From the NCBI GenBank assembly GCA_026414185.1, contig JAOAJL010000003.1, forward strand, positions 2,896 to 66,895: DNA of 64,000 nucleotides. The letters are read 5' to 3'. The position numbers and the translations under genes were made by a program. Position 1 is the stretch's first letter, and each line of letters opens with the position of its first letter. The notes beneath the pieces were generated by a model. It was not told the DNA's origin, made no database searches, and worked only from the letters and a program-made list of their open reading frames with translations. This document shows positions 21,863-24,237 of this stretch, piece by piece. Source of the DNA: Candidatus Micrarchaeota archaeon (GTDB taxonomy: Archaea > Micrarchaeota > Micrarchaeia > Anstonellales > Anstonellaceae).

Positions 21863-21943
21863 AGCCCCACCCGCTTTTTTTTGGCTTGCTTCATTTTTTA
21901 TCCATTGCGCATAAAGCAGGCAACGCTTTCAAAAAAAAGAAAG

Positions 21944-22159
21944 TGCCAAGGGCGAGATTTGCCCCCCATCCCTTCTGTTTTTTGGGTTTGAACTCGCGGC
22001 TTCCAGATTTCTCTGGCTTTTGAAGCGGCAATCCGCTTCCGAATGCCTCGCATATCATAGTTCCGCAGCGGCGGAACTCATCACTCACATCCTTCGCCTC
22101 GGCAATGCCTTGTGGCGACATATGAGTCTGGCACTCTAACCAGGCTGAGTTACCTTGGC
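21944..22159 (-). tRNA. tRNA-Met/Ile2 (anticodon CAU) with two introns (112 nt after position 37; 29 nt in the T-loop near 59/60)
   Basis: Hand fold: GCCAAGG UA ACUC AGCCUGGUUA GAGU G CCAGA CUCAUA [22120..22009] A UCUGG AAGCC GCGAG UUCAAA [21986..21958] U CUCGC CCUUGGC A. A CUUUCUUUUUUUU run follows. All stems are Watson-Crick after in-silico splicing. It is not initiator-like. Confidence 0.8.
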
Positions 22160-22211
22160 ACGATTTCATGTTATAAAAGAAAGGTTTTTATTGTGCTGTC
22201 AGTCTATTTTC
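22160..22211. promoter_or_regulatory. AT-rich divergent promoter region between tRNA-Met and RNase P RNA
   Basis: Sequence GTTATAAAAGAAAGGTTTTTATTG. TATA-like elements are readable on both strands about 25-35 nt from the two RNA 5' ends. Confidence 0.5.
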
Positions 22212-22534
22212 AGCGGAGCGGCGGGAGGACGGCTCACCGCGCCTGACATAGGCGGGGAGGAAGTTCTGCCCACCGGAATGAATGCCTGAGCCGCTTAAGG
22301 CGGCATCGGGAACAGAAACGACAACTCCTTTGCGCAGATGAATATGACGAAAGGAGATGCGCACTGAGAAGCTGAAACGGCCCGTGCGCAGGCAGTTGAA
22401 GGTGCAAGGCCTTACGGCCGCTTTGCCCACTCCGCAAGGACGGGCAGCCGGGGCAACCCCGGTTTAGTCCAATGCCGTCTAAGGGCGCGCAAGCGCCCCC
22501 AAACAGAAGGCAGACTACCACCCGCCGCTCCGAT
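22212..22534 (+). ncRNA. rnpB: RNase P RNA (archaeal type A-like)
   Basis: P1 is a perfect 12-bp helix: CGGAGCGGCGGG (22214..22225) with CCCGCCGCUCCG (22521..22532). CR-I-like GGGGAGGAAGUUCUGCCC pairs with CR-V-like ACAGAAGGCAGACUA to give P4 with the conserved bulged U. An AGAUGAAU element and an ACAGAAAC element are also present. Length is about 320 nt. Confidence 0.8.
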
Positions 22535-24112: not shown

Positions 24113-24237
24113 GGGCTTGTGGCGCAACGGTAGCGCGCCTGCATGGCACAACCCCTCACGGAAAAAGAGGGGTTACGGAATGCAGGAGGCTGGGGGTTCG
24201 AAAGAAACACGCGTTTCCGGCAATCCCCCCGAGTCCA
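24113..24237 (+). tRNA. tRNA-Ala (anticodon GGC) with two introns (32 nt after position 37; 21 nt in the T-loop near 59/60)
   Basis: Hand fold: GGGCUUG UG GCGC AACGGUA GCGC G CCUGC AUGGCA [24149..24180] U GCAGG AGGCU GGGGG UUCGAA [24203..24223] U CCCCC CGAGUCC A. A U-run follows. The G3:U70 Ala identity pair is present. Confidence 0.8.

Follow-up and report, generated by a model that had tools for sequence, protein, structure and literature searches.

We analysed a 64,000-nucleotide stretch of DNA (the window) from Candidatus Micrarchaeota archaeon, corresponding to positions 2,896 to 66,895 of the forward strand of contig JAOAJL010000003.1 in assembly GCA_026414185.1, a genome of 0.96 Mb in 35 contigs that is 87% complete. 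Between positions 21944 and 22159 of the window, on the minus strand, lies what we regard with high confidence as a single gene for elongator tRNA-Met(CAU) carrying two introns. The longer of these contains a conserved kink-turn module next to an element antisense to the anticodon loop of its own tRNA. The parts of the gene and the features that overlap or adjoin it are as follows.

21944..22159, minus strand: whole pre-tRNA-Met(CAU) gene, from G1 (22159) to the discriminator A73 (21944), delimited from the sequence, ARAGORN, relatives and Rfam matches of orthologues.
22121..22159, minus strand: exon 1, nucleotides 1-37 (5' strand of the acceptor stem, D arm, 5' strand of the anticodon stem, loop CUCAUA), near-invariant in relatives.
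22009..22120, minus strand: intron 1, 112 nt, at the canonical position 37/38; length and sequence vary among relatives except for a conserved core.
21988..22008, minus strand: exon 2, A38-A58 by the bulge-helix-bulge (BHB) rule; the initial annotation ended it at 21987.
21959..21987, minus strand: intron 2, 29 nt, at T-loop position 58/59, placed from BHB geometry and relatives.
21944..21958, minus strand: exon 3, A59-A73 (end of the T-loop, 3' strands of the T and acceptor stems, discriminator); its T stem strand covaries with exon 2 across intron 2.
21931..21942, minus strand: T-rich run directly after the gene, seen in the sequence and probably an archaeal terminator.
21891..22169, minus strand: a 92-aa open reading frame (ORF) over the tRNA gene, present but spurious, its pattern of change not being that of a coding sequence.

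Removal of the two inserts from the minus strand between 22159 and 21944 leaves a perfect 75-nt tRNA-Met(CAU) cloverleaf, and the product of joining 22159..22121, 22008..21987 and 21957..21944 reads GCCAAGGTAACTCAGCCTGGTTAGAGTGCCAGACTCATAATCTGGAAGCCGCGAGTTCAAATCTCGCCCTTGGCA. ARAGORN folded the joined exons as tRNA-Met(cat), with acceptor, D, anticodon and T stems that are all Watson-Crick, an anticodon loop CUCAUAA and a T-loop UUCAAAU. CCA is absent from the encoded 3' end, and the run CTTTCTTTTTTTT follows directly 3' of the gene. The initial annotation had drawn the same cloverleaf by hand after removing 22009..22120 and 21958..21986, and had pointed to the four stems, the loop, the oligo-U run and the overlapping ORF; all of these were recovered here. 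The placement of intron 1 is ambiguous by 1 nt (36/37 versus 37/38). The ends of exon and intron repeat at the second site (CAAA/CAAA), so that any position from 55/56 to 59/60 would serve for intron 2.

The locus was used to search 61 related genomes at the level of the order. Exon matches were found in 56 of them, with a single copy in the source genome itself, and an exact 17-mer of exon 1 matched mostly metagenome-assembled genomes of Micrarchaeota. When the relatives were aligned the exons proved near-invariant while the inserts differed in sequence, length and presence. Four relatives (G008, G011, G047 and G031) have no intron 2, the T-loop region of G008 and G011 reading GUUCAAAUCAC..., and in two others (G009 and G005) the insert in the T-loop exceeds 100 nt. 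In G008 (L052, approximately 2780-2830), G006, G007, G015, G017, G021 and L057 the D-loop of the tRNA-Met gene also holds a third insert of about 33 nt, where the sequence reads AG/AUGCGGAAAUGCUAGCGCAUUUCCACAGAGGAA/CUUGGUUA. Across DPANN lineages the number of introns in the tRNA-Met gene thus ranges from zero to three. On either side of intron 2 the two strands of the T stem covary (GCGAG/CUCGC, GCGUG/CACGC, GUGUG/CACAC). Orthologues that keep only the canonical intron scored 50.2 and 55.5 bits on the Rfam tRNA model RF00005, and an intronless copy from Woesearchaeota with the same anticodon arm scored 73.6 bits.

These comparisons bear on the simplest objection, that the cloverleaf arose by chance or belongs to a pseudogene in decay, and that the locus holds the 92-aa ORF or no feature whatever. 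An ORF does span the region, and tRNA finders report nothing there. However, the exons are invariant over the order-level set while the introns carry insertions and deletions of any length, a pattern that is not that of coding sequence and for which reason we regard the ORF as spurious. What is more, compensatory changes occur in the T stem and, as described below, in two helices of intron 1, and this is the sole elongator-Met-like gene in the genome. Because of the exon conservation, the covariation and the Rfam scores of the orthologues, this objection has a negligible probability and is refuted for practical purposes.

The CAU anticodon is common to three archaeal tRNAs (PMC2584109), and the identity of the gene was therefore approached by exclusion through comparison. 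The tRNA has G1-C72, the acceptor stem GCCAAGG/CCUUGGC, A73 and the anticodon stem CCAGA/UCUGG. The initiator tRNA is encoded at another locus (C11:80148-80222) and is distinguished by A1-U72 and GGG/CCC in the anticodon stem, while the tRNA-Ile(GAU) of the same genome has the acceptor stem GGGCCGG. Since the initiator is accounted for and the acceptor stem is unlike that of tRNA-Ile(GAU), the gene very probably encodes elongator tRNA-Met. The acceptor stem resembles GCC...GGCA, which we take to be the elongator-Met pattern.

The alternative is that the gene encodes tRNA-Ile2(CAU), in which C34 would become agmatidine. Weighing in its favour and against our assignment, the initiator was the only other CAU tRNA identified, and a search of the 87%-complete genome by similarity to tRNA-Ile(GAU) found no tRNA-Ile2(CAU). 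The only extra match in that search, at C32:29876, was rejected as a different intron-bearing tRNA with discriminator G. As no tRNA-Ile2 was found, the choice between Met and Ile2 rests on the comparison of acceptor stems and on the usual patterns of archaeal tRNAs. The acceptor stem and A73 do not fit the isoleucine family as represented by tRNA-Ile(GAU), near-identical exons form an intronless tRNA in other DPANN lineages, and a box C/D-type guide aimed at C34, such as that proposed below, would suit Met, with 2'-O-methylated C34 (Cm34), and not Ile2. We consider the Ile2 assignment improbable.

Beyond the splice sites, intron 1 contains a strongly conserved core. From 5' to 3' along the minus strand the elements of the intron are:

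22094..22118, minus strand: P1 hairpin (UCGCC...GGCGA), variable and absent from relatives with short introns.
22082..22090, minus strand: antisense (putative guide) element AUGUGAGUG, complementary to tRNA A31-A37 and the first intron base; the fifth base upstream of AUGA lies opposite C34.
22078..22081, minus strand: AUGA of box D' type, predicted non-bulged strand of the kink-turn; xxGA is invariant and the preceding base varies (G/A/U).
22060..22077, minus strand: P2 hairpin, predicted canonical stem of the kink-turn; paired in 98.9-100% of cells and rich in compensatory changes.
22052..22059, minus strand: a 3-nt bulge UAU and GAUAU, predicted bulged strand of box C' type (RUGAUGA-like); RAU-GA is invariant.
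22040..22051, minus strand: 12-nt block GCGAGGCAUUCG, whose distance from the C' box is constant; by hand count its GGCAUUC (22047..22041) is complementary to exon nucleotides G22-C28.
22022..22039, minus strand: P3 hairpin GAAGCGG-AUUG-CCGCUUC, covarying in close relatives and absent from short introns.

A model of this core (R1) gave one match per genome in 44 of the 61 relatives, always in intron 1 of tRNA-Met, and a single match in the window, at 22039..22094. Over 45 sequences the core follows the pattern UGAG-U-N-AUGA-G(hairpin P2)C-RAU-GA-U. P2 is 98.9% paired and contains 48 cells with double changes. As judged from this signature, the core is a putative kink-turn of box C'/D' type, in which P2 forms the stem, RAU the 3-nt bulge and the two GA dinucleotides the tandem sheared G.A pairs, with a U.U pair adjoining them; AUGA would be box D' and RAUGAU(A/G) box C'. 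We also tried GUGAUGA as a box C, which was rejected since the equivalent of the essential G3 varies (G/A/U) and only the last AUGA is conserved. A pocket of H/ACA type, formed by two arms beside the kink-turn hairpin, was rejected as well: the unpaired target bases would be A29 and G30 instead of U, and there is no ACA box.

Pairing between the antisense element and the tRNA, which extends from A31 into the first intron base, stands at 92.3%. That intron base is the only guide-target position free to vary, and it covaries with position -9 of the guide (A-U in 24 sequences, U-A in 9, G-C in 6, G-U in 1 and other combinations in 2). RNAalifold, applied to 18 relatives with short introns, recovered both this helix and P2. 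G(-5) of the guide pairs with C34 in 42 of 42 sequences, and the +5 register falls on C34 in 44 of 45 model matches. In archaeal elongator tRNA-Met, Cm34 is made by box C/D ribonucleoproteins (RNPs) (PMC6601510; PMC4033218). The proteins of such particles are encoded in the source genome, with fibrillarin detected at 283 bits, Nop5 at 196 bits and L7Ae at 101 bits. Taken together, these data somewhat favour a module that directs 2'-O-methylation of C34 in the unspliced precursor.

Several observations weigh against a guide function. The guide duplex is short in some relatives, with 5-6 contiguous pairs, and U36 and A37 are mismatched in about one quarter of the sequences. In one genus (L076, L031) guide and box are 1 nt further apart, and this would shift the +5 position to U33. 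Neither a conserved box C upstream of the guide nor a conserved box D after the 12-nt block was found in the aligned relatives, and no second kink-turn is conserved near the 5' end of the intron, after the 12-nt block or across the circularisation junction. A CNGA occurs 3 nt before the 3' splice site in only part of the clade. Symmetric assembly of Nop5 and fibrillarin in archaeal box C/D RNPs normally requires both a C/D and a C'/D' motif, separated by about 12 nt. As intron 1 has one such motif, we do not file it as a canonical box C/D small RNA (sRNA). A half-mer RNA does assemble with L7Ae, Nop5 and fibrillarin in vitro (PMC3608112), and we give about even chances to the specific proposal that intron 1 is a natural half-mer box C/D guide, lodged within its own target pre-tRNA and producing Cm34 before splicing. 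The 12-nt block is harder to place: its variants (GGCAYUC) are mostly transitions that keep the pairing with exon G22-C28, the pairing is broken in one clade, and in another clade the block is missing.

The same observations suggest the main rival to the guide mechanism, namely that the kink-turn module is an L7Ae-binding element for folding, quality control or splicing control. It might keep the anticodon loop and the 5' junction helical while the long intron folds, it might present the splice sites to the endonuclease, or it might stabilise the excised (circular) intron for some other role. A single kink-turn with no second C/D motif, the spacing variant in one genus and a second conserved block with no box D after it would all be accommodated by such an element. 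On the other hand, a mere clamp would need no fixed register on C34, and in archaeal elongator tRNA-Met no position other than C34 is known to be methylated by box C/D RNPs. Also against this rival are the signature itself, which is of C/D type (U.U beside tandem G.A) and not that of a generic kink-turn, and the presence of the full set of C/D proteins. We consider a folding or splicing-control role possible but distinctly less probable than methylation of C34.

To be spliced, the precursor would have to present BHB-like motifs, and we looked for these using a geometry of a 4-bp central helix (H) with 3-nt bulges, one on each strand, each cut 2 nt 3' of the helix. In intron 2, helix H is formed by G53U54U55C56 (21993..21990) and GGGC (21964..21961), the bulges read AA/A on both strands, and helix h' pairs CCC (21986..21984) with GGG (21967..21965). 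The intronic tetramer of six relatives (GAGC, GAGC, GAAC, GAAC, GAAU, GAAU) always pairs with the fixed exon bases. In a hand-made alignment of seven genomes helix H is 100% paired and the whole motif 96.1%, against 37-60% when the partner is slid. Cuts at 58/59 (intron 21987..21959) regenerate UUCAAAU, the loop of intronless orthologues, whereas a 59/60 register gives the same product with only two of the four helix pairs. The initial annotation had placed this intron at about 59/60; an intron in the T-loop and the spliced product stand, but its position is best given as 58/59. In two more distant genomes (L080 and G054) the register does lie at 59/60, UUCA being paired there with UGAA or UGGA.

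The motif at intron 1 is of a different quality, and its 3' strand adds one element to those given above.

22009..22014, minus strand: strand of the intron 1 BHB on the 3' side; its AGAG is paired with C32-C34 but not with A35, and AA together with A38 forms the 3-nt bulge with the 3' splice site.

This 3' half consists of the anticodon stem, a bulge (N N/A38) and then G-N-G paired with C32-C34. All 46 sequences have G(n-2), 45 of them have G(n-4), and the base between the two is a purine in 30. Helix H has its fourth pair, with A35, in only about 14 of the 46, and helix h' is weak and poorly defined, both of which count against the proposed motif. From its sequence the 5' half is classed as relaxed, of the kind accepted by the epsilon2 enzyme considered below. 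BHB-like motifs can therefore be drawn at both introns, that of intron 2 being near-canonical and that of intron 1 relaxed. The invariant UGAG of the core was considered as the central helix of the BHB and rejected, since the covariation (first intron base with position -9) fits a continuous helix and not the BHB register.

Two further observations concern the folding of intron 1. Its 3' end, CCAGA-GAAA (22009-22022), can form a tetraloop hairpin with exon UCUGG (22003-22007), copying the 5' strand of the anticodon stem; this hairpin appears in the minimum-free-energy fold of the source sequence and is not conserved in relatives. In Altiarchaeota, Undinarchaeota and Burarchaeum (L049, L060, L093, L040) the tRNA-Met introns lack the kink-turn module and end in UGAG-NN/A, so that a CUCA/UGAG BHB helix can form with all 4 bp perfect. 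Such a BHB strand may be the ancestor of the UGAG inside the Micrarchaeota guide.

The guide helix encloses the 5' splice site and occupies C32-C34, on which the BHB helix also draws, and the two conformers must therefore be mutually exclusive. Such competition could be that of a pure conformational switch, as the folding and splicing-control alternative would have it. The conservation of both of two exclusive conformers is what an order of modification followed by splicing would predict. Transcription of the minus strand would yield a precursor of about 216 nt. Under the methylation reading, L7Ae, Nop5 and fibrillarin would assemble on the kink-turn of intron 1. C34 of the unspliced precursor would then be 2'-O-methylated, in cis or in trans, after which the precursor would refold into the competing BHB conformer. 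An epsilon2-type endonuclease would remove both introns at the BHB-like motifs, and the exons would be joined by ligation, presumably of RtcB type. On the methylation reading, the presence of the module once per genome and its conservation across an order of Micrarchaeota suggest that the intron has been retained for a guide function.

An endonuclease suited to this scheme is encoded in the genome. The 397-aa EndA contains PF01974 (80.9 bits) and PF02778, and its best solved relative is PDB 4fz2 (E=2.3e-112 over residues 51-394), which we take to be the three-unit epsilon2 splicing endonuclease of ARMAN-2. The initial annotation had associated multi-intron tRNAs of ARMAN and DPANN lineages with endonucleases of relaxed specificity, and this agrees with what we find in a Micrarchaeota genome with an epsilon2-type EndA. 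The ARMAN-2 enzyme cuts both strict and relaxed BHB motifs, including those of non-canonical 59/60 introns (Fujishima et al. 2011, PMC3239211). A second, 165-aa EndA-like ORF lies about 12 kb from the epsilon2 EndA gene (C11:85977-86474; L002 1270..1767, plus strand); its catalytic domain scores 25.2 bits against a Pfam cut-off of 27 bits.

ARMAN-2 (Candidatus Micrarchaeum), which belongs to the same phylum and has the same endonuclease architecture, likewise has T-loop introns, tRNAs with two introns and tRNA genes missed by standard finders (PMC3239211). Its T-loop introns are at 53/54 and 59/60, in tRNA-Pro and tRNA-Cys, whereas that described here is at 58/59 in tRNA-Met, and a kink-turn module in a long intron, present here, is not described in that paper. 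Several BHB introns per gene and non-canonical sites that include the T-loop are also found in Thermoproteales, a different phylum with a different EndA architecture, in which the introns are mostly short (12-30 nt). Multi-intron tRNAs of Thermoproteales were reportedly connected with an (alpha-beta)2 EndA by Sugahara in 2008 (as cited in PMC3326292).

Intronic methylation guides have a precedent in the pre-tRNA-Trp of Haloferax and Pyrococcus (Clouet-d'Orval 2001 and Singh 2004, as cited in PMC3326292, PMC4090602 and PMC2584109). In the accounts given in these citing papers, the euryarchaeal tRNA-Trp intron is, like intron 1, about 100 nt long and placed at 37/38, has boxes of C/D type, is antisense to the anticodon loop of its own tRNA and targets C34. 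There too guide pairing and the BHB are exclusive, so that modification must precede splicing. According to the same accounts the tRNA-Trp intron has both C/D and C'/D' motifs and two guides, for C34 and U39, whereas intron 1 has one kink-turn and one clear guide. The host also differs, being Trp in the euryarchaeal case and Met here.

The guide for tRNA-Met has been described as 'always exonic', that is, a separate sRNA (sR49, sR-tMet), and that for tRNA-Trp as always intronic (Grosjean 2008, PMC2584109). Both the Met and the Trp guides also pair with intron bases, so that methylation precedes splicing (PMC2584109). sR49 of Pyrococcus and sR-tMet of Haloferax address the same nucleotide of the same tRNA as the module described here, but they are separate genes, whereas the putative guide of Micrarchaeota lies inside the intron of its target. 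They pair with exon and first intron bases, and in our alignment it is the pair between the first intron base and position -9 that covaries. The tRNA-Trp(CCA) of the source genome (C22:47175-47282, L136) has a canonical intron of about 36 nt with no C/D boxes. On the evidence of the sequences the arrangement is reversed here, the tRNA-Met intron carrying a guide-like module and the tRNA-Trp intron no boxes. Trans-acting box C/D sRNAs for Cm34 of elongator pre-tRNA-Met are also said to have been studied by Joardar in 2011.

The initial annotation had remarked that standard tRNA finders often miss such genes. Both finders applied here were blind to the unspliced locus: ARAGORN made no call, and there was no Rfam tRNA match at either the gathering or the E-value threshold. 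With intron 2 removed, ARAGORN gave a shifted intron and an impossible tRNA-Ser(AGA), which was rejected on the grounds of BHB and cloverleaf structure. The locus has no significant match to any sRNA family in Rfam, permissive settings giving only weak C/D sRNA-like matches inside intron 1 (E from 0.78 to 8.7). The whole genome has 24 Rfam tRNA matches, many of them intron-bearing. Since the sole elongator tRNA-Met is invisible to standard finders, pipelines undercount tRNAs in Micrarchaeota, and the gene accounts for a tRNA that seemed to be missing from a reduced DPANN genome.

Other genes in the genome appear to be of the same kind. Positions 24113-24237 of the window (plus strand), read by eye, resemble a tRNA-Ala(GGC) with G3:U70 and inserts after position 37 and in the T-loop (UUCGAA...AUCCCCC), and are missed by both ARAGORN and Rfam. 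C32:29740-29910 is an intron-bearing tRNA missed by Rfam, with the acceptor stem GGGCCCG/CGGGCCC and discriminator G; a long insert follows its anticodon region, and with the loop CUCCUAA it is possibly Arg-CCU. The neighbour of the tRNA-Met gene at 22217-22529 (plus strand) is an RNase P RNA of archaeal type (RF00373), whose 84.1 bits only just reach the gathering score. The two genes are divergent, and the AT-rich spacer of about 57 bp between them has TATA-like runs on each strand.

A doubly split tRNA in Micrarchaeota is of a known kind, while an intronic tRNA-Met guide with one kink-turn would be new, and it is the module of kink-turn and antisense element that makes the locus worth experiment. 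The relatives, in which three sites may or may not hold an intron and the T-loop shows two BHB registers, already form a comparative data set on the substrates of epsilon2 endonucleases. If the methylation reading is true, it overturns the published generalisation that the tRNA-Met guide is separate and that of Trp alone intronic, and it means that an RNA with one kink-turn can act as a methylation guide in vivo. A minimal natural C/D-type RNP with a single kink-turn would then provide a test case for how Nop5 and fibrillarin measure their target. It would also give a functional reason for the persistence of a long intron in an essential single-copy gene of a streamlined genome.

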